Counted from the first letter of the stretch, positions 1,434 through 24,873 are shown. The stretch: 64,000 bases of DNA from Vulcanimicrobiota bacterium (GCA_963714015.1 OY970223.1:416001-480000); one strand, 5' to 3'. Translations and numbers: made by a program. The notes: a model not told the origin generated them from the letters alone.

Positions 1434-1528
1434 GGTCCTCCAAGCGCGGCGCCGGCTCCCGCCGGCGTCGAAACGCTGTAAATGGCACTTTGCCGTCAAG
1501 CGCATGCGACCCTTCGCCGGCACTGCAT

Positions 1529-1999
1529 CTAATCCAAAGCGAGTTCCATGAAGGTTGGGCAGCGATAATCGACTTCGCCGTACGGCTCGCATTCTCGAAA
1601 TCCCAGCGCTCGATACAGTTGGTATGCCGCCGTCAGCCTCGTCTTGTCGGTGTCCAGGACCAACCGACGAATCTTCGCGTTCCGCGAGAATTCGACTGCA
1701 CGGGACATGAGCTTGCGGGCCAATCCGGCGCCTCGGAACTCGGGACGAACGTAGAGTTTACGGATCACCGCGGTCGATGGATCGAGCCGCACCAGCGCGA
1801 CGCAGCCTGCGGCTTCGTCGTCGACTGTAGCGACCAGCGCCAGATTCTGGGGACCGTAGAACGCCGGCAGATCTTGCAACTCGTTTTCAAAGGTTCGATG
1901 GCGCAAGTCCGGGTCCAAGCTGTCCTCGTACTCCAACGCAAGGTTCCGAAAGTGCTCGAAACTGCGCTCGTCTTGGGCAGCGCACAAAAAATCGTTCAC
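1529..1999 (-). CDS. GNAT family N-acetyltransferase
   Basis: RKLYVRPEFRGAGLAR acetyl-CoA binding motif, AYQLYRALGF. Confidence 0.9.
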   Translation of the reverse strand: MNDFLCAAQDERSFEHFRNLALEYEDSLDPDLRHRTFENELQDLPAFYGPQNLALVATVDDEAAGCVALVRLDPSTAVIRKLYVRPEFRGAGLARKLMSRAVEFSRNAKIRRLVLDTDKTRLTAAYQLYRALGFRECEPYGEVDYRCPTFMELALD

Positions 2000-2058
2000 G
2001 GCAAACAGCCGAGCACACGCCCGCGCGCAACGGCAGGCTCGAGGGGAATCAGAAGGTC

Positions 2059-3027
2059 GTGAAGCTCTATGGCGTGACCCTCGTGGGCACCGGCCAATTG
2101 ACCGGGAAGCACGTTCTGCTCACGCTCGCGCTCATCGCGATCGTCGCGATCGTGCGGTACTCGCTGCATTACCTGGTCCGCGCGGCGCGGCCTATCCAAA
2201 GGCTCGACCGGTTCCGATTTTGGGCGCACCAGGGTATCAATCTCGGCACCACAGCGTTTTTCATCGCAGCGCTTCTCTCCATTTGGATTGGACCGAACTC
2301 CCACCTGGCAACGGTCGGCGGCCTCATTGGAGCCGGCATAGCTTTCGCGCTACAGCAATTTCTGATCGCCATCGCCGGCTATTTCGTCATTTTGCGCGGA
2401 AAACATTACAGCATCGGCGATCGCATCATCATCGGCGGCGTTCGCGGCGAAGTTATCGCCCTGGATTTCATTCAAACGACTGTGCTCGAAATGGGTCAGC
2501 CTCCTTCCGTGGAGTCGCAGACGGATCCGGCGATGTGGGTGATGGCCAGGCAGTACACGGGGCGGATCGTCGTCGTCAGTAACGGTCAAATCTTCACGCA
2601 GCCCGTCTACAACTACTCCCGCGATTTCCCGTTCATTTGGGAAGAGATTCAGGTCGGCGTGGGCTACTCGGACAAATACGAACGCGCGGAGCAGATCCTT
2701 CTGGACGTTGCCCACAAGCATGTGCGGAAGATCGAAGACATGACCGAGGCCAGCCGGCAGCACCTGCACCGCATCTACGATCTGGACGAACCATCGGTGC
2801 GTCCGCGCGTTTACTACCGCATGACCGACAATTGGGTCGAGTTAGCGCTGCGATTCATTGTGCCGGATCGCGGCATTCGAGAGATCAAGGACGCAATGTA
2901 TCGTGACATCCTGCGCGCGTTCAAGGAAGAAGGCATCAGCGTGGCATCCGGAACGTACGACATCGTCGGATTTCCGCCCGTGCGGATCGAAGGCTCCATT
3001 CCTACGGAATGTCCTCCTCCGGCTTAA
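2059..3027 (+). CDS. Small-conductance mechanosensitive channel (MscS family)
   Basis: N-terminal TM helices, GLIGAGIAFALQ, YSIGDRIIIGGVRGEV. Confidence 0.9.
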   Translation: MKLYGVTLVGTGQLTGKHVLLTLALIAIVAIVRYSLHYLVRAARPIQRLDRFRFWAHQGINLGTTAFFIAALLSIWIGPNSHLATVGGLIGAGIAFALQQFLIAIAGYFVILRGKHYSIGDRIIIGGVRGEVIALDFIQTTVLEMGQPPSVESQTDPAMWVMARQYTGRIVVVSNGQIFTQPVYNYSRDFPFIWEEIQVGVGYSDKYERAEQILLDVAHKHVRKIEDMTEASRQHLHRIYDLDEPSVRPRVYYRMTDNWVELALRFIVPDRGIREIKDAMYRDILRAFKEEGISVASGTYDIVGFPPVRIEGSIPTECPPPA

Positions 3028-3088
3028 TTGAGCGCCGGCCGGAGCGCGCCCGCGAGCGGGCGCGCTCTGCGCGTGCTAAGCGTTGTGC

Positions 3089-4045
3089 TTACTTTACGAT
3101 CACGGTGCCCAGCATGTGTTCGCCGCCGTCGTGGAAGAGGCACCCATACGCGTACGTTCCGGGTTTGGTGAACGTCAGGCTGAAACTCTGCCGTCCGAAG
3201 AGCGGTCCGGAGTTTACCACAGCGGAGCCGTCATACGTGTTCCCTCCGGAGGGCGGCGAGAACGGATTCAAGTTGGGCACCGCCTGGCCCGCGACGGGAA
3301 ATGTTATGGTATGCGGAAGATTCGTATCGAGATTTGTCCAGGTTACCGTAGTGCCCGTCGCAACGGTGACCGTGGAGTCGCTCAGCGAGTCGCCGTCCAG
3401 AAACCGCACGATGCTCGCGTTGGTGAGCGGCGGCTGGCCTAGCCCGGCTGAAATACCCGCAGATAAGTGTGGTCCGCCGTTCGCGTACGGAAATTGCGCA
3501 ACCGAATCACTTGCCGTTTTCAAGTCCGCCGCCATGGCACCGGGAAGCTGTTGGAGGATTGCGTCATTCGTCATCGGGTATGGTGTGCCCGCGGGTTGAA
3601 CGACGACTTTGCCAATCATCTCGCCATGGATCAAGCAGTAGTATGTGTACGTCCCCGCTTTCGGAAACTTTAACGTATAATTTTTGCCCCCTAAGAGAAA
3701 GCCGGAATTCGTGTACGTGCTGCCGTCGTAGCTGGAACCACCCGCAGGAATCTGGACGCTTGGATCGTTCGGGGGCGGTGGCGCAGTCTTAGGTCCCAGA
3801 AACGTGACGGTGTGCGGTTCGGCCGCTGGATAACTCCACGTAATCGAATCACCCGCATCGATCGTGATGGACGACGGATAGAAGCTCAGCGCCTGGATCG
3901 CTCCGGTTTGATCTGAACCGCCCGCCTGAACGTTCCAGGTCTGCGGTTCGCTATTTGCGCCGGCCGGTGCTACGGTGCCGCTCGATCCGCAGCCGGCCAG
4001 CGCCAGCGAGAGAGCCGCCGCCAAAAGAAGAGCGCGTTTCGTCAT
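3089..4045 (-). CDS. Lipoprotein with two cupredoxin (plastocyanin/azurin-like) domains
   Basis: Lipobox LALAGC; two HT(V/I)TF ... YxCLxH...M type-1 copper ligand sets; start at MTKRALL overlaps the upstream stop (ATGA). Confidence 0.8.
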   Translation of the reverse strand: MTKRALLLAAALSLALAGCGSSGTVAPAGANSEPQTWNVQAGGSDQTGAIQALSFYPSSITIDAGDSITWSYPAAEPHTVTFLGPKTAPPPPNDPSVQIPAGGSSYDGSTYTNSGFLLGGKNYTLKFPKAGTYTYYCLIHGEMIGKVVVQPAGTPYPMTNDAILQQLPGAMAADLKTASDSVAQFPYANGGPHLSAGISAGLGQPPLTNASIVRFLDGDSLSDSTVTVATGTTVTWTNLDTNLPHTITFPVAGQAVPNLNPFSPPSGGNTYDGSAVVNSGPLFGRQSFSLTFTKPGTYAYGCLFHDGGEHMLGTVIVK

Positions 4046-4479
4046 GATGCCACCTCCGGGTCGGGAATGCCGTGCGGGCAATATGCTTCATGCACGGCGT
4101 GAGGTACGTAATAGGCGTGCACGTCGTAATGCGGGACGGGGTATCCCTGATGACCGTGCGGGTTGAATCCGATGTCGACGTGATCGATACGATAACCGGG
4201 AAGCGGGCGCAGGATATCGTGCCATCCCTTCCCTTGTACGAGCGATTTCTGATCGATCATGACTTCGGTGAAGACGATCCGACCGTTGTACACGCCGTAG
4301 ATCGGCCCGAACGGAAGATCGCGCGGATTTGCCCAGTGCTCGCCCATTCGGGCGACGCACGGACTGATCTGTACTGCGCCGGCGGGCATGCCGGCGGGAG
4401 GAGCCGGCGCTGCCGAACTGGAGCCTTGGACGAGCGGGCCGAAGACGGCCAGCAATGAGAGGATGCGAAGCAGTTTCAT
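4042..4479 (-). CDS. Secreted His-motif protein (DUF5602/TTHB210-like)
   Basis: Signal peptide; MGEHW, DHVDIGFNPHGHQG, PHYDVHAY motifs. Confidence 0.6.
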   Translation of the reverse strand: MKLLRILSLLAVFGPLVQGSSSAAPAPPAGMPAGAVQISPCVARMGEHWANPRDLPFGPIYGVYNGRIVFTEVMIDQKSLVQGKGWHDILRPLPGYRIDHVDIGFNPHGHQGYPVPHYDVHAYYVPHAVHEAYCPHGIPDPEVAS

Positions 4480-4527
4480 GACTGTAAATTTAAAGGAATG
4501 CCGCGAGCGGGAGGATGGGGCGAATCC

Positions 4528-4968
4528 CTACCCTTTGCCGATCGCCGGGTAGAGTTCGCAGTCGTCCGCTTCGAGCAGGTCCAGCGCAATGGGGTAGCGG
4601 CTGCGCAAATAGTCGGGATAGAGCGACTGGAAGTTCGCGCGATAATCGTCCGTGAGAGTATCATGCCGGAATCCGGACAACAGCGCGTTGGCGCGTTCGT
4701 ATTGCGTCGCGTCGGCATGCGCACGAAGCCAGGCCGCGATCTCTTCCTCGCCTCCTGCCTCGAACACGGCAACGCGCAACTTCGGAAGATCGACGCGTAT
4801 TACGTCCAGGAGCATCTGGCTCATTCCCGGCACGATGTGGTACGGGCCTAAGTGGCCTCCCGGGAGCGTGGCGCAGATTTTGTCGATCGTGCGAGGCATG
4901 AAGAGCAGGTTGTCCAGCCGCTCTCGCGGGCTTCGCGGCGAACGTATACGCAAGTCCAAAGCTATCAT
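4528..4968 (-). CDS. DUF5069-like protein
   Basis: DLRIRSPRSPRERL..MPRTIDK..ATLPGG.LGPY, LDLLEADD; start uncertain. Confidence 0.7.
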   Translation of the reverse strand: MIALDLRIRSPRSPRERLDNLLFMPRTIDKICATLPGGHLGPYHIVPGMSQMLLDVIRVDLPKLRVAVFEAGGEEEIAAWLRAHADATQYERANALLSGFRHDTLTDDYRANFQSLYPDYLRSRYPIALDLLEADDCELYPAIGKG

Positions 4969-5016
4969 GCCGCTAAGCGTACGGCGTGCCATGCGCCGCG
5001 CGTATGGGGTGAATCC

Positions 5017-7586
5017 CTACTTCGGTGCGGTTTGCTGCGCCAGCGCCCGGACCGCCGAAGCGCGGTTGTTGACCTGAAGTTTTTCGTACAGACGCGCGAG
5101 GTGTTTTTCTACCGTCTTTTCGCTTATGAAGAGCTCGGCCGCCATCGCGCGATTGCTGCGCCCTTCTTGCAGGAGATGGGCTATTTGCATTTCACGCTCG
5201 GAGAAGCGTTCCACTTGCGGCACGCAGCCGAGTTCCGATGCGCGGCGCTCGTGATGCACCCAGCCGATCGCGCTATAAAGCTCGCGGGCCCGAGCGGCAG
5301 AGCGATCGCGGGTGTTTGTATCGCGAACCCGGTGGGCGGACAACGCCTTCACCATTGCGGCAGTTGCCGCGAATGCCGGCGCGGGGGAATCTTCGTAAGG
5401 CGCAAGCAGTCCGAGCGCTTTGTCCCGCGCCGCGCTGCTGCCGAATTCCGCCATTGCGCTCAACGTTTCCCATGCGGCGTAGGGACGCTCGAGCCGCTCT
5501 GCCGCGGCATCGAGAATGCGTACCGCCCCGCGCAGATCGCCTTTACCGGCAAGCCGCCGGGCAAACACGCCCGCCAGCGGTCCAAAAAATTCGTTATGTC
5601 CGCCCGAGACGACCGCCTCGACCTCGCGCAGCGACGGGAGACGCGCGGTTTCGGCAAGCATTGCATTCAGAAGCACGTATGCGTGCAGCGCGGGAATCGG
5701 CGCATCGTGCGCCGCGGCAAACTCGGCGTAGCGCGCAAACGCGCCGAGGTCGCCGTGCAGCCATCGATCGTACGCCGCGTGCGAACTGAAGGCGGCTTCG
5801 TAAACGTCCATCTTCAGTGGCCGAAGAAGAGCAAAACATTGCTCGTACAGCGTTATGGCGGACAAGCCCAGGAACATTGCGTGCGCGGCAAGATTACCGA
5901 AATGCGCGATGTACTGCGGGTCGGCGCCGACGATCGCTGCGTTCCTTTGGAGTGCCGCCTGCGCGCCCTTCCAACCGTCGGCGTTTCCCATAGGGGCGTA
6001 AACGGAAGCGGCGATCGCGTAGTAGCTTCCGCCGGCGCGCGTGTGGCTGATGGACTGTTCGTCGATGCGGCTGAGCCACTCCAATCCCAGCTCGGGCGTA
6101 ATATCGGAGGCGTAGAAGGCAGCCTGTAGGCTCAGTTCCGTATGCAGCCCCCGCGGCAGAGCGTCGAGCTCCGCTACGGCATGCTGGATAGTTGCCAGCG
6201 CATCGCGGATGCGATTTTGATTGAAGAGACAGCGCGCGAGGCTTTGATAGAGGCTTGCCGGTTCTTCTACCGCACCGGAGGCGCGGTAGATCGCAATTGC
6301 TTCGGTATAGGCGCGTTCAGCGTCGGCGACCGTCGCGGTTCTAATGAGCGCGTCGCCCTGACGTGCAAGGGCTCGGGCCCGCTCGAGCGAGCCGTTATCT
6401 GCACACGCGGCAGCATCGGCGTAGAACGTGGCGGCATCAGCGTACGCGTGCACCGTGTACGCCATTCCTCCGGCGCGCATGAGGTATGCGTAGGCCTTCT
6501 CGCGATCGTGCGCACCGGCGTAATGATGCGCCAGCTGAGCGAATCCCAGTGCATCGAAGCGGCGGCGGCGCTCGAGTGCGCGAGCAGCGCGTTTGTGAAG
6601 ATCGAGCCGCTGTGCCGAGGTGAGTTGCGCAGAAAGGACCGCGCGGGTCAAGGCATGAGCAAATCGAAAACGCGCGCTTGTGTCTTCTACGACGATTTCC
6701 GCTTTCTGCGCATTCTCCATCAATTTGGCTGCCTTAGCGGAAGAGCACCCGAGTGCGTCGCCGAGCAATTGCAGTTCGAACTCTTCGCCCAGAACGGCCG
6801 CAGCTTGCAAAGCTCCGGCTTCCGCGATGCTTAGCCGCGCGATACGCACTTCGATTGCGCTGCTGAGTGTAAGCGGTATGTCCCCCGTCTGCGCGTTCTT
6901 CGAGAGTTCCGTCGCGAAAAATGGGTTTCCACCCGACAAGGCCGCGATTCGCTCGATACTCGCCGAAGCGCTCGCCGGCGCAGCCACCAACGTTCGCACG
7001 AGCGTCGTGCAGTCCGGCGCCGACAGCGCACGAAGTTGCAGCACCGTCGCGTGCGGGCTGCTGAAGATGTTTCGAAGTGCGTCCGTCACCTCCGACGAGC
7101 GCACCGTCGCGATTACGAGCAGGCGCCGAAGCGCGCCCACTTGCGGGAGCAGCACTTGCAGCAGATCGAGAGAGCCGGCATCGGCCCACTGCAGATCTTC
7201 GAGGACTAAGATCGTCGAACGGCGCTGCGCGCACGCGCGCAATGTGCCGTAACCACCGTTTCGTACATTGCCGCCTTATCCGAAAAAGCCGAATCGCTCG
7301 GCCGTATGGCCTTAGCGGCTTCCGGAGCTACGCTTTGAAGCGCGGAGATCCACGGCGCAAAGGGCGAACGGACATGTTCGAAACCGTGACCGACGCCGAT
7401 TGCGGAGCGCCCGCGCGGAACGTCGCGCAGAAACTCTTTCACCAGGCGCGACTTCCCGATGCCCGGCTCGCCGGTAAGCAGGATTACACGGCCATAGCGA
7501 TGGGAATCCCGCCGCATCTGCGCAAGACTCGCGAGCTCATCTGCGCGTCCGACGAACGGACCCCGCACGTCCCGATCAATCGCCAC
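5017..7586 (-). CDS. AAA/STAND ATPase-TPR-LuxR HTH regulator (frameshift at ~7245)
   Basis: FVGRADEL and TGEPGIGKS (7206-7586) continue into LVLEDLQWAD, SGGNPFF and a C-terminal LuxR HTH GRSNRAMAAELFISEKTVEKHL (5017-7242). Confidence 0.85.
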
Positions 7587-8025
7587 GCAGTTTTATGTTC
7601 GCGGCCTTGCTAATGCGCTCCGCTCGCTTGCGAAACGACCCGATCGATCATCGCGTCGATAACCGGCTTGGCAGGCAGTGAAGGCTGCGCGCTTATGCTA
7701 GTGCGTATAGCGAGCAGCGTGTAGGTGCACGGTTTTTCCGAAAGTGCTGAGCGAGTTAAGGAGAGTTCCTCGGCCAGCGCGACGATGATGTCGCAGGACT
7801 CCCACGTAGCAGCGTTTGTACCGACCGCGTATTGGCTATGTCGCTGACGAGTTGGGCGCCGTGGCGCGCACCCGAACGACAGTGTAGTCGACGCTTTAGA
7901 TCAATTATCGTTTTGGCGACTCCGCTTGAGCACTTTTCCACTAGGAACCCGCATCGAACCGTACGAGCACGTCCTGATCAGCGATGGGTGCGCGACGACA
8001 GCGCCGCAACAAAAACAAGGTACCC

Positions 8026-8135
8026 AACCCGTCCGCACTGCGGCTAATGCACGCTCATACTTTCTGCCTATGTTTTCGACGAATTTGGCGTATGACTGCG
8101 ATTTTATTCGTTCTATTGCGGCTAGTCGGTAAATG
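8026..8135. repeat. Diverged copy of the island left-end sequence (10472-10585)
   Basis: tccgcactg-cggctaatgc (8032-8050) vs tccgcactgccggctaatgc (10481-10500); further collinear blocks gccta..ttttcg.cga.ttt.gc and actgcg.t.t.at.cg.tct..tgcg.cta. Confidence 0.65.
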
Positions 8136-8223
8136 GATGACGCTCGGACTCGGTAAGCTGATCACTGCGCGAGATCGGACGAGCGGCCGCTCAAGCCTCT
8201 ATACTGCACATTGTCATCGAGGC

Positions 8224-8481
8224 CTATCCGACGATACGGTGATCTGTCAAGAGGGCAAAGAGATACGACGGCGCCTGACGATTCTGGAGCGGCACGGTAC
8301 TCTTCAACGGCAGCAACGGAACGGCTTTAGCGACGTCGCTCTTCGGTATTTGCCGGTTCGTGGTATGGAGTACGATCGAGTTCCCACGAATGCTGTACGT
8401 GAACGGCTTGCCGCGGACCTGAAGGAATACTTGACCCTCGCAGGCGACGATCTTGTTCCAAACATTGTCGATGTTATGCAT
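8224..8481 (-). CDS. Small hypothetical protein coupled to the NucS-like gene
   Basis: ATG 8481 overlaps the corrected stop (TAA 8476-8474) of the upstream gene; 85 aa MHNIDNVWNKIVACEGQVF... Confidence 0.6.
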   Translation of the reverse strand: MHNIDNVWNKIVACEGQVFLQVRGKPFTYSIRGNSIVLHTTNRQIPKSDVAKAVPLLPLKSTVPLQNRQAPSYLFALLTDHRIVG

Positions 8482-9254
8482 TGATGCGTTCAACCTTTAC
8501 CGATAAGTTGTACTCAAACAGTTCAATGTCGGGAAACTTACGACACGCCAGTATCAGATACCGCGGATATCGTGCGCGCAATAATTATCCCGCGAATGCG
8601 TTTGCCTTCGTCAACATATCCGTTCTCCTCCAGCCACGCCATATATCGAGCGATCTGACCAACCACGCGATCGTAGCCGCGCGACACCTTGAGTTCGATA
8701 ACGACCATATTATCGTGCGCATCGGTAGCGAGGATATCGACATATCGCCCACCAACGGGAAATTCCACACCAGAGGCGCCGTCACGCTCATACAGCGTCA
8801 AACCGTCCTCAATTTGGAAGAGATTAGCGGCCAGGTAGTTTTTGAGATCCGCCTCGTAAGCAAATTCGCCCGCGTCATATAAACCCGCTTGCCCGTCTTC
8901 CGCTACGTTGTCCGCTTCGTCATGGACGTCAAGGGACTCGGCGGCGGTTGCGCCGTCGGTTCCAATATAGATCGGCGGGGGATCGTTGTCAGGATCATAT
9001 AGCCTTAGCGTATTCCGACCCACTTGAAAGAAAATATCGTTGCGCTTTGTCGCGTTGTAATAAACGCGCGTCCGATTGTTCGTCGAAGCGGCTATGGTTT
9101 GCGCCTGAACCGTGCTCGGTTTTACCTTCGGATACTTCTGTCGAAACCACGCGGCCAGGTCGTTTTTAGAGAAGACTTGTCCGTACCCAATAGAGCGATC
9201 GCCGATGAACTCGCGAAAGAGGCTCTCTAACCGGACGGTCGTATATGGGCACAT
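8474..9254 (-). CDS. NucS/DUF91-like PD-(D/E)xK endonuclease with N-terminal domain (frameshifted)
   Basis: EFAYEADLKNYL, GVEFPVGGRYVDILA, VVIELKVSRGYDRVVGQIARYM; indel near 8560 restores C-terminus LILACRKFPDIELFEY. Confidence 0.85.
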
Positions 9255-10450
9255 TAAACATTACCCTGCTGGGCATCGCTTTCACCAAGGGTAAGGTATC
9301 AACCGAGGGTTAGCTCGCGCTTTGCCCTTTTCCAAGCGTTTCCTTCGTCGACACGGTACGCTTTTGTCGACGCGTAGGATCCTGTTGCAACACAATGTGC
9401 GGAAAGCCCTCACGTCGCATACGCGACGCAATGTCGTATGCTTTGATTCATGATGGTGGCATCCAAGATGCAAAAGCGCGGCCGGAAATTTGGCGTGCGA
9501 TGACACGCTAAGGAATCTTATGCGGTACGCGGATGATCCAGGCGCTGGCCCGCTTGAATTGAATAAAAAAGCGAACGCCGTGCACTCAGTACTTCACATC
9601 TTATACAACCAGCAACTTTTCAATAGTCGAAGGGAAGTGGGGCGTTCCAGAGCGGCGCGATTCCGGTAACGAACCGCCGGAAAGAGGTTTGAAACTACGG
9701 CGGAGATTCAGGGATCGTCCAGGTCCGGTCTTTCAATGTGTCAGGCCCGCCTCGGTGCATTAGCGATAGCTTGTTTGGCGCCGCCGCTTGCTTACGCTAG
9801 TTGGGATGTGCGAGGAGTAGATGTGCTCGCGGCGCAAGAGCGCAGACTCGATCGACGAACCTTGCTCGTACTCGTCCAGAATACGCGCCTTGCTGCGGCA
9901 GAAAAGTGCCCGTGTAGCTTTTGCCGCGACCTCAGGGTCGATTAGAATTGGATTGCATGCATGAGACCTTTTATGCCCTGACTAATTTATTCCGGTCGAA
10001 TGGTCTCACGCGAAACTGAAACGGACGGATACGAACTTCTGGTCAGTGCAGAGGACCCAACGGCATTCTATGCATCACGCACGACAACCGACAAAGACGG
10101 ACGATTTTCGGATATCGTTGGCTCCGATACGCCGAACGTTAACGAACACTACGTGATTACGCAAACATCCATCGGAAGCAATTCCGCCCCATGTTTAAGC
10201 ACGACATTCCCTCACCACATCTTGGTAACCAACGGTTTCGTGATAATCAACTTTGCGGCGGTTCAGCCATGAACATTATGAAGGTCTTATGCCTATGCTT
10301 CCTTACCCTGATCGGATCGTCGCTGGAGCTCGTTTCGAGTTGCGGGCGAATTTCCCGGGCAGCCTAGCGCCGGAAGATGAAAAGACGGCGGTGTAATCGT
10401 GGATTGCTGGAAGCGTGCCATAAAAACGCTCGATAAGATCGGTGGAACTA

Positions 10451-10476
10451 TGGTAGCGCCAACGGGAATCGAACCC
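10451..10476. repeat. att direct repeat (copy of tRNA-Glu 3' end)
   Basis: tggtagcgccaacgggaatcgaaccc identical to 24799-24824. Confidence 0.95.
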
Positions 10477-10580: not shown

Positions 10581-10599
10581 AGTAGAACTTCAAGTAGAA
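10581..10599. repeat. Terminal motif AGTAGAACTTCAAGTAGAA (candidate integrase arm-type site), left
   Basis: Identical to 24736-24754; internal direct repeat AGTAGAA. Confidence 0.75.
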
Positions 10600-12857: not shown

Positions 12858-13368
12858 TCACCCATGGATTGTAATCTCGATTGCGCTGGGGTCGACTCCA
12901 TACGTCATGGACAATCCTTGTTTTGCGGTGGCGATTGTCAAGGGTACAAACTCGCGGGGTCACCGAGGAGTGGTCGACGACCTGGACTTCGACCGGTTCA
13001 AACTTCAGCGCCGTTACCTCAATACCGAGGTCGGATAGGGAAGTGTACCATACTGGATTTCGCTGCGCGTTCCACGCCTGCGGTACCGAGATACGCGCGA
13101 CAGAAGTGAAGCGAATTATCGAGCGTCCTACCGGCTCGGGCGCCGCCGCCGGCTCTATCGACGCAATCGGCGCCACGAGGAAAGCCTCCCCGTGATCGTA
13201 TGGCTCGTTCGCGGAGGCGAATTCCCCCTGGGCATTCCAGATGCACACAAGGTAGCGACAGCGACGCGCCGATGATCCAATCTTCCACGCCTGAGAACCA
13301 CCATCGCGCAGCATACGTTCAATGTTGCGGCTCGTCAGGACCGCAATGCATGAGTCCGCGTCCTTCAC
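12858..13368 (-). CDS. Hypothetical protein, PUA/EVE-like (frameshift at ~12945)
   Basis: GGSQAWK..ARRCRYLVC.WN...HGEAFL...RNPVWY; alternative frame gives LTIATAKQGLSMTYGVDPSAIEITIHG* ending at 12858. Confidence 0.55.
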
Positions 13369-13590
13369 ATAAATATTATATCGATTTTATATGACTATTT
13401 CAACCCTCCGAGGCAAATATCGATTCACGTCCTTAATAGCGCGAGAATCCGGATGTATTCTGCGGAGCGAACCCGACCGATCTCCACAATGCCATACTGT
13501 TAGCATCACACCAAATTATGCTTAGCCGCGAACGCACCGCGAAGATCGCCTAGAAGGATCTTTTTGTGACAGGCATATTTAACACGTGCA

Positions 13591-14543
13591 ATGCTGGCAA
13601 GAAAGTCTAGCCCTAAAATCCCCGTAACCGATACGCTGCCTCGAAGAGTCCCAGGAGGATCTTCTATGGCACGGCGATGTCGAGGCTTTGCTCGACGACC
13701 TTCCCGAAGCACCGCTCTTCGATCTCATCGTGAGTTCGCCGCCCTATAACATCGGAAAGGCTTACGAATGGAGGGCGGATATGGCGAAATACCAAGAATG
13801 GCAGGAGCGGGTGCTGCGCAAGATGGTCCAGCGCCTATCACCGAGTGGCAGTTTGTGCTGGCAAGTCGGGAATTACGTTGCCGATAACGAGATATTGCCG
13901 CTTGATATTCTCTTTCACCCGATTATGAAAAGCCTCGGCTTAAGACTGCGAAATCGAATCATCTGGACTTTCGGACACGGATTGCACACAAGGCGAAGGT
14001 TCAGCGGCCGTTACGAAGTCATTTTGTGGTACACGAGGAGCGACGAATACGAATTTGACCTCGACGCGGTCCGCGTGCCAGCGAAATACCCGGGTAAGAG
14101 ATCTTTTCGCGGCCCGCGCCAGGGCATGCCCTCGGGAAACCCCCTCGGCAAAAATCCGGAGGATGTATGGGAGTTTCCGTTCACAGAAATTGACGATGTC
14201 TGGCGGAACATTCCTAACGTCAAATCAAATCACATCGAAAAAACCGACCACCCATGTCAGTTTCCGGTTGGCCTAATTGAGGAGGCTGATTTTTGCGCTC
14301 ACTAAACCAGGAGCGCTCGTCTTCGATCCGTTCGCCGGCGTTGGATCGGCGGGCGTTGCTGCGTTGCTGCACAACCGGCACTTCTGGGGTTGCGAGATCG
14401 ATGCGAAATACATTGCGATCGCGCGCGAGCGGCTTGAAGGCGCCGCAGCAGGTCTCGCTTCCTATCGGCCGCACACAAAGCCACTATACGATCACACCAA
14501 GTCGCGACTGGCGCTAGTCCCACCGGAATGGGATTCGGAGTGA
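13591..14543 (+). CDS. Site-specific DNA methyltransferase (N4C/N6A, beta class; frameshifted)
   Basis: DLIVSSPPYNIGK catalytic motif, LRNRIIW, HPCQFP, VFDPFAGVGS SAM motif (14277-14543 frame); probable ATG at 13591. Confidence 0.9.
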
Positions 14544-15009
14544 ACTTTCTGCTGTACGACCATCGCGGCGGAGCAGCGGTATTGAATCGATCTTGCGTTG
14601 AATCGGTGAAAAGCGTTATAAACGGCGTGGCGCTCACGAAAAGAGAGCGGACAACTCAGAGAGTGCGGGCCCGAATCCTTGAAGGGCTGCATCACGCGGG
14701 TTGGTCGGATGAAACGAAACTAGACCCTGGGCTCGGCTATTACAGTGACGAGTGTTCGAAACTCCGTCGGACTTGTGTTTTCAGACGGGCAACACAAGCA
14801 GAATGTACGCAGACCTGTTGAAATTGCAGTTGCTCTTCAGCCGCAAGAAAATTGCTGGCGCAATTCTGTTGCTGTACTCGAAAGTTTCTGCACGCGAATT
14901 AGGCGAAAACCTTGCACACTTCGACAGATTGACGAGAGAGCTCGAACTTTTCAAGGAGATAATAACCGTGCCGGCACTTGTTTTTGGCCTGGAAGTAATT
15001 GAATCATGA
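14540..15009 (+). CDS. BglII/BstYI-like type II restriction endonuclease (frameshifted)
   Basis: GTGA overlap with MTase stop; GWS.E, GLCFQTGNTSRMYADLLKLQ, GENLAHFDRLTREL, IITVPALVFGLE. Confidence 0.7.
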
Positions 15010-16261
15010 AGCTCGGCTGGGAAAAACCACGACGCTTGACGACGCTTCAGGAGTGGAGCACGCAACCAGCGGCTACCACGTATCCGGTGCCATTCCAAGG
15101 TACACTACAGCATCTACCTATCAGAACCGCATCGATCGAGATGCCCAAGTACCGGTTAGACAACGGCAGAACTGAGGCGGCGCATCTCAATACCTCGCAA
15201 TGCATCCCGAATTTGATCCCGATATCTTCACAAAGGATCTCGAATCTGAAGCCCGCACAGAACGCACAACACGAAATACTCTCCACACTCATCAACGAAA
15301 AGGACCTACTTCCCTGACTTTCGGGATCACGAGCAAGAAGAACCCCTCATCCTGACGCATGACGGTTTCGTACTGAACGGCAACCGGCGGCTCTGTGTTT
15401 TTAGGACCTTATTTTACGACTCGCCGAAGACGTACCCCAACTTCGCAAATGTTTCTGTTGTGGTTTTGCCATACGGTGACGAAAAGGACCACGACCGCCT
15501 CGAGTCCCGGCTGCAACGCGAGCGCGATCTCCGCGCCGACTATCCGTGGTACTCCGATGCAGTCAAGTATCGAAAACGGTTAAGGAAATTCGGCGATGCC
15601 GAAGTCGCCGCAATGGAAGATGTTAGCAAGGAACACATCATCAAGTACATTTCGATGCTTGACCTTGCGGAAAAATACCTAGAATATCGGGGCGCTCGGC
15701 TTCGATACGCGCTATTGAGTGAAGCCAAGGCTGGAGGAGGCGATGGCTTCTTTGCGTTTGAAGTGATTTTCAAGAACCGCACCAAATTTAAAGATGCGGC
15801 GGAGAAAGAGGCCTTCATCTACGCCTGCTTTGCGGAGCTCCAAACGAAAAGGTAGAGCGTATGAAACAATTCCTAAAATCGCTGAGTACTTCGCGTACGT
15901 CACAAAAGAGATACCAGCCCCTACACATGCGACCGAAGGTGGTGCCAATGCCGTTGACGAGTTCTTCGGAAAAGACAAGAACAATGAATTCGCACCCGTG
16001 GCCGAATATGCGACGAAATTCGAGCACGCGGAAGCGCTTCGCGCAATTGCGCAAGAGGTCGTCGAAGAACGGGAGCGGATAAAGAGCGATACCAAAAAGC
16101 AAAACTTTGTGTATCAGCAGGTCAAAAAGGCCACCACCATCCTGAAGGAGGCATTTAACGGCATTCGCGACGGGTCGAGCCAGGCTGGAGTGAACGAGCA
16201 ACTCGCTGAAGCACAAGAATATATCGAGAGACTGCGGGAGTGGGCGACACCAAAAGCCTAG
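15006..16261 (+). CDS. ParB/Srx-like N-terminal domain protein (frameshifted)
   Basis: ATGA overlap with REase; KYRLDNGRT, QEEPLILTHDGFVLNGNRRL, acidic helical C-terminus; pieces 15006-15317, 15460-15855, 15794-16261. Confidence 0.7.
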
Positions 16262-18030
16262 TTCGCGCCGCGTATCTGTCGAGAAGCGCGCGCGTGAAGT
16301 TGAGTCGCGACGCACCATCCACAGCGTGGATGGCTATTTGGGATAAACGCCACGAGCTTTCGGACGACGTGCACGATGAGAGCCTCACCGAGATTTCGAT
16401 CCCGGTTTGGCTGCTGTTCGGTCTCGGCTCGACCTTTCGGCATTACGCGCGCGTCGGTCGCTTGGCATTTGAACCTGACAGTGGGACCGCAACCATACTC
16501 AGAAACGGCTTAGCAAGCCGTCAAGAGCGCTGGAGCGGGCTGCTCCAATTGAGTTGACCGCCACCGAGGTGCAAGAACAACTGCGCGCCGCCGGTTTCAT
16601 CAGAACTCTGACACCTGAGCAGGCACGCAACGTCGCGCGGCTACAACGTTATTCGGCCGGCGCGGATTTTTCGGTTCCCGGCGCCGGCAAGACAACCGAT
16701 GCCTTGGCGTTCTTCGCGCTAAAACGCAGGGCCAGGGAAGGTCTCGTCGTCATTTCGCCTCTGAACGCGTTTGCTCCATGGGAAGAACAAATCCAATTTT
16801 GCTTTGGTGTCGGCAAATTGCGCACCGTACGCCTCGTTGGAAGCGTCCAGCATATCCAAGAACTGCTTAATTACGAACCAGACGTCGCGCTGATCGATTA
16901 CCATAAGTTTTCGCAAGCCGCGGTTCACAGTGTCCTTGCAGATTACATTGCTGCGAAGCGAACGTTCGTCTTCCTCGACGAGAGTCATAAAATAAAGCGG
17001 GGTGAGGATGGTGCCTGGGGAAACGTGGTGCTCAGCATTGCGCACCTGCCCACGTACAAGCTTGTCTTATCTGGCACGCCGCTACCGAATTCGGAAGCCG
17101 ATCTTGTGGCGCAGATGCGCTTCCTCCACTATGAAGAAGATATCGACGAGCAAAACGTAACGCAGCTGATTCAGCCAATTTTCGTCCGTACGACCAAAGA
17201 CGAACTTGGGCTTCCGGAGGTTATCCGGCGGGCTGTTCCGGTCGCGCTCAGACCCGGCCAACGGAATCTGTACGAGATTCTCTCAACATCGCTTTCCCAA
17301 GAAATACAGATGGCATTGAGCCGGCGTGAGCGCGTCTCTGTTCGTCAGAGTCGGCAAAAGCGTCCTCAGGCTACTCAAGTTTGTTTCCAATCCGGCATTG
17401 CTGATTGCGGAACTTCAAGCGCAGCAAGCTGCGGCGCTACGTGACGTTCTCCTCAGTGAGGATTCGCGAAAAATCGAGTACGCCGTAACCCGTGCGAGAG
17501 AGCTCGCCGCCAACGGCCGCAAATGCATAATTTGGTCTTCATTCATAGACAATGTCGAAGTCATAGCCGGAAGGCTGTCCGATTTGGGTGCCGAGTACAT
17601 ACACGGTGACGTTAGCGTAGGTTCAGAAGAGGACGACACTCGCGAACGACGGATCAAACAATTTCATGAAGACGATGACCGCTTTGTTCTGGTAGCAAAC
17701 CCAGTGCGGCTGGGGAAGCGATCAGTTTGATACGGTCTGCCACAACGCGATTTACGTTGATCGCACGTACAACGCTGCACAGTTCTTGCAGTCCGAAGAA
17801 CGAATCCATCGTGTCGGTTTGTCAAAGGATACCGTTACCGAGGTCGAGATACTTGTTGCGCCGAGAACGATTGACGAGTCTGTGAACCGGCGGTTGATCC
17901 AAAAGGTAGCGACCATGAGCCGTGTGCTAAATGATCCGGCTCTGCACATTGACCCTGAATATGAGGATTCCGGATGATGACGAGGACGTTGCCGTCGACG
18001 ATCTACGAGATTTTCTACAGGACGTGAGCA
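16240..18030 (+). CDS. SNF2-like (SF2) helicase/ATPase (frameshifted)
   Basis: FSVPGAGKT (I), FLDESHKIK (II), LSGTPLPN (III), KCIIWSSF, VLVANP, FLQSEERIHRVG (VI). Confidence 0.85.
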
Positions 18031-18043
18031 CGGAAGCGGCATC

Positions 18044-18955
18044 ATGAACCTTTCCGTGGGTGTGTTGTACGATTGCCAGAAATTCATCGAACTGTGCGAA
18101 TCACGGGCATTTGCACTCAATGACGTTAGGCAGGCCTTCCAGCACCGTTATGAGGCAGCCCGATAGGTGCAGTGCTCGATATGATCCGGGCCACAAATTG
18201 GATACCACTTTGAGGATGACGGTCTACTACGCCTCACCGAACGAGGACGGCGCATATTGCACTGCCGGATGCGGTCGCGGCTCTGCGGCTGCAGCTTATG
18301 GATTTCATTGAGCAGATTGTTAAGCCGACGTGGGCGAGCTTGATCCCACGCGGCCGAAGGGAGACATTGGCGTATCTTCCCGTAGATGTGCGTCAGTGCT
18401 TCAACGAGGCGTACCTGAGTTCCGGATACGACGAACAGGTTGTTGCCTTTTGGGATCGCGCGGCAAATTTATCACGCGGACGCACTGACGACATTCTGTT
18501 GCAGATCGGACGTGAGGGCGAGCGGCTCAGTATCGCGTACGAAACTGAACGTACTGGCCGTGTCCCGGGGTGAAGGCGATCGATTCAAACGTCGCTGGCT
18601 ATGACCTACTCTCGACGGTCGCCCGTGAGGACTCGACCCGCTGAAAATTGAGGTAAAGGCCGTAAAGCGTGTCGATGAACAAGCCTTTTACCTGACCCGC
18701 AACGAGTGGTCGTGCGCCACTGGCCACGGCAAATATGTGCTTCACCTTTGGCTTCTGGGAAAAGTGCCAACGCTCGTCATCAAGTTACCTGACGAGATCG
18801 CGGAACATGTGCCCATAGACAGCGGCTGCGGGCTGTGGCGATCAGTTAAGATTTTGACGTTCGAGGGCGGCGCGACACAGATTAGGCTGACAAAATCGGA
18901 TCGAATTATTGATACGCGCGACGCAAAAAGTGCCGGCTACTTTACTGACTCCTAG
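18044..18955 (+). CDS. DUF3883 (NO VEIN C-terminal) PD-(D/E)xK nuclease-domain protein (frameshifted)
   Basis: MNLSVGVLYD start; IGREGERLSIAYE, AGYDLLS, KIEVKA, FYLTRNEW, YVLHLW. Confidence 0.75.
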
Positions 18956-19197
18956 GAAGAATCCACGCCACCTATTTTTTCCAGGCTGGATTTAACTGTT
19001 GGAAAGATCTGCCGAGCGTTTTGGGACTCGCGCAAGTCACTGGCGCATTCCGACCCATGGCCATAAGACTCCAGGAATGCGTCGATCTCGTCGGCGGGCC
19101 CAAACGTCACCGTATTTATGATGTTGCCAGCGTTTACGCAGTCAGGAACTTCGCAGATGACGGTAAGCGTGATGTCGCCGACGGACTTAAGCGCCAT
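18952..19197 (-). CDS. Small hypothetical protein
   Basis: Purine-rich RBS-like sequence upstream, ATG, 81 aa; no recognised motif. Confidence 0.35.
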   Translation of the reverse strand: MALKSVGDITLTVICEVPDCVNAGNIINTVTFGPADEIDAFLESYGHGSECASDLRESQNARQIFPTVKSSLEKIGGVDSS

Positions 19198-19420
19198 GAT
19201 GTTTTTAGCCGCCCTCTTTCAGTCGTTCTTTGCTCGTGTCCCCATCCTGCCCGACGAGTCCGCCAATGGGTTGCGCTAGTTCCAGCCCGAGGTTCACAAA
19301 CTTAGCGCGGGTAACTCCAGTCATCGGGAGGCGCGTCTAAGCCGCGCGGCACTTTATGATGTCGCCGATAGACCGCCTCCGGGTTGAAAAACATCTGGAA
19401 GAAGTCCCGAAGGCCTGCGA

Positions 19421-20308
19421 GTGCTGGAATACCATAGTGCTATGTTACCGCCAAGTGACGCGATTGTTCCTCGTGATCTGCGCCGTCCGAGCCGCCTAGT
19501 CGGTCGGCCTCGCGTTCATGGCTGCCTTCGCGCCCCGCATTACGATTACGATTGCACCGACGTTCGATGCTTGAAGACGCGAGTATGCGAACGTATACGG
19601 CAATCTACGTATACCTTCGTAGATTTTCGTAGGCTCCGCAAATTTTTAGAGTCTTTCCCCGGTTCGCCGCCGGCTGGCAGGGTCGGACACCCGCAGACGT
19701 TGGCGCGCCCAGCTGCCGCAGCCAGGCGGCCGCACCCCGGCGGGCTGGTAGGCCTTTGGGCACTGGCCCCTGGGACGGCGCATATGCCGCGGCATATTCA
19801 CCGTGGTCATAATGCCGCGGCATAACGGACAATCTCCTCCGGTGGGAACCCCGAACCAAATCCGCGCTGGCTGCCCATGGCCATCCAGGAGCGACGCCAG
19901 TCCCTGGGCGCACGTGCCACCCGAGAAGAGATCGCGCATAAGGCGCACCTGAACTTACGGCATTTGCGTGCAGCGGTATCATGCGGCAGTTGCAGAAGTG
20001 ATGAGGACTAAGCGAATCGTTGTGCGCGGCTATAGCGGTTCTGATCCGCATATCAACGCATGGCTATATGAAAGCGCCAGACTTCACGGCGAATCGTTTT
20101 GCATGGCGTATGTCACAAAGCAGGAGAATTTCAGTCCTGTAATCGCCACACGCGAAATGGAATTCATTCAAGGTGTAACCCGGTTACGGAGCACCATCAC
20201 GAATTGCTGGGCATGTGCGCTACATCGGCAGCAACGTCGCTGGAACTGGCGTAGGCCTACCGCTAGACGATGAGGCGCAGGCAAAACTCCTGCATTTCGT
20301 ACTTAGTT
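19421..20308 (+). pseudogene. Possible SIR2-like domain gene remnant
   Basis: IVVRGYSGSDPHINAWL resembles the SIR2_2 GYSxxDxHI motif; no continuous ORF; N-terminal motifs not recognised. Confidence 0.4.
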
Positions 20309-23400: not shown

Positions 23401-24571
23401 ATTCTCATATACCTCACTTGCCTGCAAGTCCGCGTCGAATCTCGGAACTACCGGCGAATGTCTCGCTGACGATCGACAGCATCGCTGGGTTGCGGCAGAT
23501 TTTCCGTGCATTACCGCTCAGCGTTCCACCGATTTGGAATACAGTGAAGTATTTCTGGATGAATTCGTCGAGTTGCTCGTCTTCGAGCTCGCCAAGGGTT
23601 ATAACTTCGGATTCATTGGTGAAGCGGGCAAGCAAGGTGCTATTCAACAGGCGATGCTTTTCACTCGGTCGGCTTAGTATGATAATCTTGCAGTTGAATG
23701 CACTTAGGCGATCTATCATCGCGGGCAGATCGTGCAGCTCAGACGATACCGCCATCCAGTCGTCGAATCCGTCGAGCACTACGCCTAGCGGCACCCCACG
23801 TTCGGCCAATGAAACCTCGGCGACGCGTTGCAGAAACGCCATGACGTCATCACACCGCTCGTAGACCGCTACAATATCACGTCGGATAACTGCCTCTACG
23901 CCGTCCGTAAGCGCGGCGCCGTCAAGCCTTATAGCATTCCAATGTGGTGATTCAGCCAGGGTCCATGAAAGAGCCGATTTACCGATATCGGAAACGCCAA
24001 GGATTATGTGAACCGGATTTTGCGATCGAAAAAGGGCGACGAAACTGAAGCCGCTCGGAAAGCGGCGCGGTACATACAGATTCGCTGGGATTGACAGCGG
24101 GTGCTTTTGCCGTTGCCGTTCCGGAAACAGCAAGAACTCTTCCGATACCCATCCCGGCCGATCCAGTGTAGGGCTGAAACCGATCCGTAAAGCGCTCTTC
24201 GCGAATGACAGGAGCTCACGTTCTTGAGTTTTGCCCGTGTTCACATTGATCGCGATGTACGTTGTGCCGTCGGTAATACCGACTTCGACGCACCCCTCCG
24301 CTTTCGCATAAGCGACGACCTGCTTGTTTGCCTTCTCGCGTTGTGTCGGCGTCTTGAATTTATCAGGACGCTTGACTTCTATTATGAAAACGACTTTGCC
24401 AAAATGGCGGACCACAATGTCTTTGCGGCGCCGCGATCCAATTTCACGCTCCTCAAGAATGACGTCGTCCATGGGCCAAAGCCGGCGCAGCTCCGCCGCA
24501 ACATGCGCGACGTAGTCGTTTTCTGAGGGCGCCGGTTGTGCGGAGTTGCCGCTCGCCTTTTTGCGAGCCAT
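20407..24571 (-). CDS. Large nuclease-STAND/NACHT-helical repeat protein (Avs-like), many frameshifts
   Basis: MARKKASG start; RRRKDIVV...FIIEVKRP (HsdR-N-like PD-(D/E)xK), ILGVSDIGKS Walker A, VVLDGFDD Walker B, CRNPAML; collinear helical ORF pieces down to 20407. Confidence 0.7.
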
Positions 24572-24735
24572 TGCACGTCGCGTTCGGTTTTCCGGAGCAC
24601 TCTGCCTGTACCGTACGCTTGACCCACATGTTAATGGCTGCCCTCGGCTACGCTGATCTGCCTGCAACTGTCACCTGGGCTTTTGCCTGCCCGGTGCAAC
24701 CGCCATACGGAGACTCGTGCATCTCCGCGACGCTG

Positions 24736-24754
24736 AGTAGAACTTCAAGTAGAA
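24736..24754. repeat. Terminal motif AGTAGAACTTCAAGTAGAA (candidate arm-type site), right
   Basis: Identical to 10581-10599; here AGTAGAACT-TCA-AGTAGAACT. Confidence 0.75.
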
Positions 24755-24798: not shown

Positions 24799-24873
24799 TG
24801 GTAGCGCCAACGGGAATCGAACCCGTCTTTCCGCCTTGAAAGGGCGATGTCCTAACCGATAGACGATGGCGCC
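24799..24873 (-). tRNA. tRNA-Glu (UUC)
   Basis: GGCGCCATCGTCTATCGGTTAGGACATCGCCCTTTCAAGGCGGAAAGACGGGTTCGATTCCCGTTGGCGCTACCA cloverleaf, anticodon TTC, encoded CCA. Confidence 0.97.

Follow-up and report, generated by a model that had tools for sequence, protein, structure and literature searches.

A mobile five-gene cassette in a tRNA-Glu island of a Vulcanimicrobiota bacterium probably works like a multi-subunit restriction-modification system

We analysed a window of 64 kb from the 3.56-Mb single-contig genome of a Vulcanimicrobiota bacterium (G000:C1:416001-480000), in which five genes on the plus strand at positions 13591-18955 had been proposed, in a sequence-only reading, as a candidate defence system. 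The genes encode a beta-class N6/N4 DNA methyltransferase with the signature SPPY...DPFAGVG (13591-14543), a BglII/BamHI-fold protein of ∼155 amino acids (14540-15009), a ParB/Srx-fold protein of ∼420 amino acids with the signature NGRT...NGNRRLxAxR (15006-16261), a SNF2-family ATPase of ∼600 amino acids with a conserved N-terminal domain of ∼100 amino acids and an acidic tail (16240-18047), and a DUF3883/NOV_C PD-(D/E)xK nuclease of ∼280 amino acids with an N-terminal domain of unknown fold (18044-18955). All five were present where that reading had placed them, and the motifs it quoted were seen in three-frame translation: SSPPYNIGK and FDPFAGVGS in the methylase, DLCFQTGNTSRMYADLLKL in the BglII-like protein, DGFVLNGNRR in the ParB-like protein, SVPGAGKTT and DESH in the SNF2 protein, and AGYD and KIEVK in the DUF3883 protein. 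The overlapping junctions it described were borne out by the coordinates of open reading frames (ORFs). An ORF at 14277-14543 stops with the TGA of GTGA at 14540-14543, between the methylase and BglII-like genes; the ORF at 14752-15009 overlaps the ATG of the ParB-like gene at 15006 in an ATGA (15006-15009); that at 15794-16261 overlaps the GTG of the SNF2 gene at 16240 (overlap 16240-16261); and the SNF2/DUF3883 junction is an ATGA at 18044 once the frame is restored. An intact copy of the cassette from a Nitrospirota genome (L044) served as the main reference for the proteins.

Fragments of the window methylase matched Pfam N6_N4_Mtase (7.9e-30 and 4e-10) and the PADLOC model MTase_II (5.6e-57), and in a frameshift-aware alignment 199 of 304 residues were identical to those of an intact homologue (L023). 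The window SNF2 protein matched Pfam SNF2-rel_dom (1.7e-15) and Helicase_C (0.004) and, aligned in the same way, was identical to its L044 counterpart at 289 of 583 positions. The remaining Pfam matches in the window fell short of the family cutoffs, at 25.7 bits against 26 for the BglII-like fragment (Endonuc-BglII, 1.1e-5) and 19.5 bits against 22.1 for the DUF3883 fragment (NOV_C, 0.001); the intact L044 proteins matched N6_N4_Mtase (1.3e-50), Endonuc-BglII (8e-15), SNF2-rel_dom (1e-18) with Helicase_C, and NOV_C (2.5e-10). A profile of the BglII-like family (A3, 24 sequences) also matched BstYI (9.9e-9), BamHI (3e-5) and OkrAI (3.1e-5). The best Foldseek match of the model of this small protein (pLDDT 93.7) was BglII (1d2i, E 1.4e-9, TMq 0.88), followed by BstYI, OkrAI and BamHI, and the protein is accordingly predicted to have a BglII/BamHI fold.

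Sequence searches were silent on the ParB-like protein, for which neither Pfam nor PADLOC gave a match with the window fragments, nor Pfam, PADLOC or NCBIfam with the intact 419-amino acid L044 protein, and a family profile searched against PDB sequences found no ParB match, only repeat and coiled-coil noise. A fold search was therefore needed. The AlphaFold model of the L044 protein (pLDDT 90.8, pTM 0.82) had 12 listed Foldseek matches at E≤0.001 and several weaker ones, which were ParB, Noc, Spo0J, KorB and pNOB8 ParB-N; the top matches had probabilities of 0.99-1.00 and E values from 1e-4, and the best TMt was 0.61 over 205 columns (Spo0J 1vz0). Judged by this modelled fold of its intact homologue, of which tblastn found residues 3-412 covered in three frames of the window, the third protein is ParB-like. 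Residues invariant in the family (A2, n=31) are R57 and T58 (within NGRT), Q62, Q90, Q112, G122, G127-N128-R129-R130, R135, E168 and W183. The nucleotide-binding box of ParB is GERRxRA, and the GNRR...A.R patch of the cassette protein resembles it in sequence.

The residues at the putative active sites bear on which protein cuts. We take the catalytic residues to be D94, E111 and E113 in BamHI and D84, E93 and Q95 in BglII, and the BamHI numbering was reproduced by the alignment coordinates. In the profile alignment, M-E111-F-E113-T-G-N of BamHI and I-E128-V-Q130-F-G-K of BstYI fall on l-c-l-Q-T-G-N of the BglII-like family, while BamHI D94 lies outside the aligned stretch, which begins at residue 103. 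The column of BamHI Glu111 and BstYI Glu128 contains C, F, G or T, the column matching the Asp of OkrAI LDAVK contains S, T or N, and neither is acidic in any of the 24 sequences; the invariant Q of the family aligns to BamHI E113 and BstYI Q130. In the DUF3883 family (A4), E165, G184-x-D186 and E202-x-K204 are invariant in 28 of 28 sequences, so that this appears to be the only cassette protein with a complete nuclease site. Since the BglII-like protein lacks the two canonical carboxylates and the E...D...ExK site of DUF3883 is complete, it seems more probable that the BglII-fold protein reads the site than that it cuts. The earlier assignment of the short BglII-like protein as a working restriction endonuclease was thus not upheld, although the fold itself is present.

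To place the cassette among its relatives, a profile of 15 SNF2 homologues (A1) was scanned against public genome contigs, which yielded 552 relatives, and the best 80 loci were kept. Fourteen of these are cut by a contig end, and architectures were counted on the 66 fully flanked loci, with tblastn searches using the L044 proteins and pieces of a second copy, found in G037. The latter genome, from the same class and another family, was the only one of 40 relatives in which a DNA search revealed a syntenic copy. In 43 of the 66 loci the methylase, BglII-like, ParB-like, SNF2 and DUF3883 genes follow one another in this order on one strand. Eight loci lack the N6/N4 methylase, and in all eight a C5 methylase adjoins the cassette (PF00145, 1e-39 to 7e-47); five lack the BglII-like gene, the methylase directly abutting the ParB-like gene; four have a 480-amino acid N6/N4 methylase convergent downstream; and six are single variants. 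A methylase is present in 65 of the 66 loci (L034 being the sole locus in which none was detected), the BglII-like gene in 55, and SNF2 in all 66 by construction. Neighbouring cassette genes often overlap by a few bases, in the homologous loci as well. The five-gene order put forward for this locus is thus conserved across genomes, with the methylase linked almost throughout. The constant core is the ParB-fold protein and the SNF2 ATPase, together with a methylase, usually beta-class N6/N4 and sometimes C5, and normally followed by the DUF3883 nuclease. The proposal that the ParB-SNF2-DUF3883 trio acts as a back-up did not fare well against these counts, as ParB-SNF2 and the methylase are constant and it is the BglII-like gene that is absent, in 11 of the 66 loci.

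The cassette is widespread in bacteria of many phyla, yet without a name. Of 8000 candidates scored against the intact 593-amino acid SNF2 protein of G037, 3197 matched at E≤1e-3, most of them ∼590 amino acids long and ∼50% identical, from Bacillus, Paenibacillus, Brevibacillus, Planctomycetes, alpha-proteobacteria and others. The ParB-like family, clustered at 50% identity, had 2290 representatives with E≤1e-3 and 672 with E≤1e-30. In soil metagenome runs the shares were small only (0.05-0.13). Among 201 sampled genomes of the window's phylum, eight matched, including two of the window's family (G153 and G208), in each of which all five genes are single frames. Their cassette DNA is merely 65-71% identical to that of the window, indicating that the distribution is patchy and horizontal. 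Cassettes occur in islands and on plasmids, and the plasmid-borne distant homologues of the ParB-like protein are annotated ParB, RepB or Spo0J, a match on a Paracoccus plasmid being unannotated. We also noted that in L044 a gene resembling an HhH-GPD glycosylase lies directly 3' of the cassette (9637-10311, plus strand; Pfam 8.6e-8; PADLOC 'Type II nicking endonuclease' 1.9e-5). On the Lactococcus lactis plasmid pIBB109_AgSa_3 (L088), positions 636-8650 hold in a row Type III Mod, Res, a 'ParB N-terminal domain-containing protein' and a 620-amino acid SNF2 helicase, so a ParB-SNF2 pair can join a Type III restriction-modification (R-M) system instead of a methylase and BglII-like gene.

These data also bear on the possibility, close to what the sequence-only reading had proposed, that an active Type IIP pair both discriminates and cuts, and that the ParB, SNF2 and DUF3883 genes form a separate or back-up system that is only carried along with the pair. 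In favour of this, the small protein shows the complete BglII/BamHI fold, keeps the Q of E-x-Q and shares D90 and K93 with BstYI; the locus varies in its methylase and BglII-like genes, which can be swapped or lost; and on the Lactococcus plasmid the ParB-SNF2 pair sits behind Mod-Res. Against this stand the BamHI E111/BstYI E128 and OkrAI Asp columns, which are never acidic in the 24 sequences, and the overlapping start and stop codons of the BglII-like and ParB-like genes, both here (ATGA, 15006) and in homologues. Moreover, in the five loci without a BglII-like gene a methylase of the same family directly abuts the ParB-like gene, which would leave a methylase without a cutter unless DUF3883 cuts. 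All 55 fully flanked loci with a BglII-like gene also have ParB-SNF2, a count to be read with the collection in mind, since loci were gathered through SNF2 and stand-alone pairs of methylase and BglII-like genes could not show up. We regard the two-system arrangement as improbable.

Still less probable, and in our view very unlikely, is that the cassette has no part in defence and instead helps a mobile element with maintenance, partition or DNA processing, in which ParB would serve segregation, SNF2 remodelling and the methylase replication control. The ParB N-domain and helix-turn-helix (HTH) fold are indeed those of partition proteins, distant plasmid homologues carry partition-type annotations, and the cassette is found in islands and on plasmids. 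However, no ParA gene was found within the cassette or next to it in the window, L044 or L043 (parS sites were not searched), one constant partner is a nuclease whose active site is intact, and the neighbours elsewhere are of defence type (C5 methylases, AIPR, a DndB-like gene and Type III R-M). In addition, AbiR, the one experimentally studied system that, as far as its available description goes, is of similar make-up, is a phage defence (PMC13064643).

The tRNA-integrated island described earlier was borne out by low GC, a tRNA gene and a direct repeat. GC is ∼0.53 over ∼8-25 kb of the window, compared with ∼0.61 around it. ARAGORN identified a tRNA-Glu(UUC) on the minus strand at 24799-24873, and a repeat search found that its 3' 26 nucleotides (24799-24824) recur exactly as a direct repeat at 10451-10476, the att-like left edge, which delimits an island of 14.35 kb between att-like repeats. 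Pfam searches of first 17 and later 40 ORFs revealed no integrase in the island. Near both island ends there is another exact direct repeat, 19 nucleotides long (10581-10599 and 24736-24754), in reversed order relative to the 26-nucleotide repeat. The 417-amino acid ORF beside the tRNA (23414-24667, minus strand) is not an integrase and gave weak NACHT (0.0016) and HSDR_N (0.002) matches, while a short ORF at 19953-20270 (plus strand) weakly matched Pfam SIR2_2 (0.0078). There is no long ORF in the island between 19 and 23 kb, where further frame-broken defence genes may sit. Outside the repeats, in the low-GC stretch at 8000-10450, a 238-amino acid ORF (8541-9254, minus strand) with DUF7669 (4.6e-13) and NucS_C endonuclease (7.6e-9) matches may be left over from an earlier insertion at this tRNA.

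As assembled, the window copy of the cassette cannot be read through. It had been noted that indels would need repair, which was correct but an understatement, and an origin in assembly error had not been considered. Frameshift-aware alignment of each gene to its best intact homologue gave 18 frameshifts, due to one- or two-base indels, and no in-frame stop across the five genes. The methylase (n=2) is broken at 13627 and 14282; the BglII-like gene (n=2) at ∼14725-14729 and 14772-14773; the ParB-like gene (n=4) at 15180, ∼15250, ∼15311 and 15829-15842; the SNF2 gene (n=5) at ∼16483-16528, 17349, 17704, 17730 and 17968-17972; and the DUF3883 gene (n=5) at ∼18161, 18205-18211, 18260-18278, 18568-18571 and 18630-18636, with a sixth at 18866 when the second-best homologue is used. 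By tblastn against L044, each window gene was likewise scattered over several frames.

We then aligned to the region soil-metagenome contigs from four studies that are 90-100% identical to it (most pieces at least 95%); parts of the stretch, among them 13000-13433 and 18642-19500, had no contig cover. A frame-restoring indel was present in these contigs at 12 of the 18 sites, which are all those that were readable in this respect; the sites at 13627 and 15180 fall within contig pieces that hold one gap each at a position not displayed, and the other four are without cover. The contigs read -1 at each of 14729 and 14773 (runs X1, X5), +TG at 15842 (X7), -2 at 16527 (X5), -1 at 17349 (X6), +C at 17729 (X1), -1 at 17968 (X1, X6 and X7), after which the SNF2 frame reaches the ATGA at 18044, +C at 18158 and -1 at 18204 (both X1, X6 and X7), +C at 18264 (X1, X6) and +G at 18571 (X1); before 17706 a loose contig end reads ...ANPA (X1). 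A 3-nucleotide difference at 18314 is in frame. Of 118 substitutions relative to the soil contigs, the 40 displayed fall at codon positions 3 (n=25), 2 (n=9) and 1 (n=6), and 26 are synonymous and 14 non-synonymous.

One explanation of such damage is a true pseudogene relic, a cassette inactivated in this lineage, perhaps as an escape from self-restriction or its cost, and now decaying in a tRNA-Glu island that is old and no longer mobile. None of the five genes is spared by the 18 frameshifts; the island has no recognisable integrase and between 19 and 23 kb contains only short ORFs and the weak SIR2_2 fragment; and the G037 copy is broken too, with nine frameshifts and no stop. The indels are also concentrated in the cassette and the rest of the genome is clean, ORFs of at least 200 amino acids covering 89% of it and only nine stretches of at least 2 kb being without one. 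However, the 1754 frame-corrected codons contain no stop other than the terminal one. With the frames corrected, a random substitution in the cassette has a 3.9% chance of producing a stop, and the probability that none arises is 0.11, 0.027 or 0.0007 for 54, 90 or 180 neutral substitutions. The 26 synonymous to 14 non-synonymous differences from intact soil variants, the indel to substitution ratio of ∼1:4 to 1:9 in contig pieces, and the balance of insertions and deletions, with no bias to deletion, likewise speak against decay. Finally, one cassette gene has a frame break in 5 of the 80 public loci (L036, L037, L063, L073 and L085), and these breaks cluster on megabase contigs of metagenome-assembled genomes (MAGs): 3 of 5 loci on contigs of at least 1 Mb (MAG contigs of 1.1-4.2 Mb) compared with 2 of 75 on shorter ones, which points to a general assembly problem for a mobile cassette. 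We consider a decaying relic unlikely, if the most serious of the alternatives. In G037 (L006), the genes flanking the cassette (8075-8938 and 15382-16526, minus strand) also seemed by eye to be split into overlapping ORFs, one fragment containing IDGNQRL.

Because there are only indels, the substitutions are mostly synonymous, the same pattern is seen in G037 and breaks are enriched on megabase MAG contigs, we think it quite likely, from the assembled sequence and the soil contigs, that the breaks are mostly consensus error in a strain-variable island. Reads from several near-identical carriers of the mobile cassette may have been mixed to give such a consensus. The copy as assembled is thus unreadable most likely through consensus error, and a working cassette is probably present in the organism; failing that, the copy was inactivated very recently, for which we see clearly the smaller chance. 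Several observations count the other way. Elsewhere in the island the long ORFs (318, 263, 322 and 417 amino acids) are unbroken, so that it is the cassette in which the indels are concentrated. Roughly half of the indel sites fall in runs of two to four identical bases and about half are not in homopolymers, and two of the events are of two nucleotides. The soil contigs are short (150-470 nucleotides), have a depth of 2-6, end at the cassette edges and come from other carriers, not this strain. Lastly, when the L037 methylase, which is longer, is used for the alignment instead, the result is four frameshifts and a stop at 13567, which lies upstream of the ATG at 13591. In genome scans, 18 indels without a stop, in a mobile cassette that is near-identical in other strains, should be taken for a probable consensus artefact before a pseudogene is called.

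On balance we favour the view that the locus is a copy of a horizontally mobile five-gene cassette working like a multi-subunit R-M system driven by nucleoside triphosphate (NTP). The methylase would mark a short motif on host DNA, and a dimer of the BglII-fold protein would read the same motif when unmethylated, without cutting. The ParB-fold protein, with its Arg-rich GNRR patch and HTH, would serve as a clamp or loader on DNA that is gated by NTP, while translocation would fall to the SNF2 motor and cutting to the DUF3883 subunit. Loss of the methylase should then be toxic, as reported for AbiR. More tentatively, and at somewhat less than an even chance, the cassette may represent a distinct, unnamed R-M class in which a dead BglII/BamHI-fold dimer reads, a ParB-type NTP-gated clamp couples it to a SNF2 translocase and DUF3883 cuts, the working copy having been misreported by the assembly. 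What stands of the extended R-M-like system proposed earlier is a single unnamed, conserved R-M-like unit that is not DISARM; the roles do not, as cutting is probably not done by the BglII-fold protein and the trio belongs to the core.

Some considerations temper the view of the locus as an NTP-driven R-M system. Defence, dependence on the methylase and complex formation we infer from folds, conserved residues and gene linkage. The 80 loci were collected via SNF2, so that the linkage of partners to SNF2 was measured and not the reverse. As the BglII-like gene is absent from 11 of the 66 loci, its product cannot be the sole site reader; its reader role comes from sequence-profile alignments, not residue-level structural superposition, and its invariant D90, K93, N122, R128 and E132 make an alternative active site conceivable. 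Intact copies in Bacillus and Paenibacillus isolates make the cassette a tractable test case. If the view is correct, ATP would drive a restriction machine that counts a nucleotide switch of the ParB type and a disarmed Type II restriction fold among its functional components.

The cassette matches no system model of PADLOC v2, and a full-text literature search found no paper describing the gene set, which supplements may nevertheless list. The description of the set as no recognised named system agrees with these results, as far as the texts searched extend. Papers on MoDMP (PMC3459991), HEPN (PMC3710099), BREX (PMC12839542), Dnd (PMC10853773) and Asgard (PMC11529989) do not describe the cassette in their available text, and their supplements might list it. 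In the window, PADLOC v2 returned Type II methylase models, a weak REase_II, and weak generic DpdE, ZorD and DrmD matches on the SNF2 pieces. No TGT-like DpdA, ParB-like DpdB or DpdC of the 7-deazaguanine system Dpd was matched, the DpdE-model matches being on SNF2 only (to 8.9e-23, in L043) and short of a system call.

DISARM class 1 consists of a methylase, the SNF2 protein DrmD, the DrmA helicase, DrmB (DUF1998) and DrmC (PLD). No supporting Pfam or PADLOC match to DrmA, DrmB or DrmC was obtained in the window genes, L044 or L043; there were weak DrmD matches (1e-3 to 1e-9) and one to DrmA at 1e-8 on the SNF2 C-lobe. The earlier exclusion of DISARM therefore stands, there being no DUF1998, DrmA or PLD component and just weak, generic SNF2 matches. 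ARMADA II is, in the available account, a multi-gene restriction-like defence with a methylase and an ArmA-like SNF2 protein (PMC13463889). A methylase and a SNF2 protein alone are common to the cassette and these two systems; the cassette differs in having no DrmA/DrmB (DUF1998), YprA-type helicase, PLD/Vsr nuclease or UvrD-like ArmD. The Type IIP enzymes BglII, BstYI, BamHI and OkrAI share with the cassette the fold, the QTGN...D..K segment and an adjacent beta-class methylase. They differ in size (194-223 amino acids versus ∼150 for the cassette protein) and in the two canonical catalytic carboxylates, which the cassette protein lacks, and in the sampled loci the small protein always lies between the methylase and ParB-SNF2-DUF3883.

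The closest known systems, by analogy of architecture and composition, appear to be Hma and lactococcal AbiR, the latter being the nearest by architecture. Hma is described as comprising HmaA, a SNF2-DUF3883 fusion of ∼1180 amino acids, the DUF1156 methylase HmaB and the DUF499 ATPase HmaC (PMC11232893; the fusion also in PMC3710099). HmaA is reported to protect against phage T4 (PMC11232893; preprint 10.64898/2026.09.30.754977), and the isolated DUF3883 domain to nick DNA (preprint 10.64898/2026.09.30.754977). The likeness lies in a SNF2 helicase and a DUF3883 PD-(D/E)xK nuclease beside a methyltransferase. In the cassette, however, SNF2 and DUF3883 are encoded by two genes that overlap, the methylase belongs to PF01555 and there is no DUF499, while Hma, in the available part of its description, has no ParB- or BglII-fold proteins; the PADLOC HmaA model gave no match to the L044 or L043 SNF2 protein at E≤0.01.

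AbiR, from the Lactococcus lactis plasmid pKR223, is described as having a ParB-like AbiRb/AbiRii, superposed on PDB 5K5D, an AbiRc with a restriction-nuclease-like N-domain and a SNF2 ATPase, and a sigma70-like AbiRa (PMC13064643). This phage-defence system reportedly needs the LlaKR2I methylase (M.LlaKR2I) and is toxic without it (PMC13064643). A reduction of phage DNA replication is also reported for AbiR. AbiR and the cassette differ in three respects, as far as the available account of AbiR goes. AbiR has the sigma70-like AbiRa and no BglII-fold protein, whereas there is no sigma70-like gene in the window cassette, L044 or L043; its nuclease-like domain is fused to the SNF2 N-terminus, whereas the cassette DUF3883 is a separate downstream gene; and its methylase comes from a neighbouring Type II system. 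The two are alike, when compared by description and fold only, in combining a ParB fold, a SNF2-type ATPase and a nuclease with a methylase that guards the host, and PDB 5K5D, on which AbiRb was superposed, is also among the Foldseek matches of the cassette ParB-like protein. If the cassette is such an R-M system, AbiR, Hma and classical R-M would be linked in one family.

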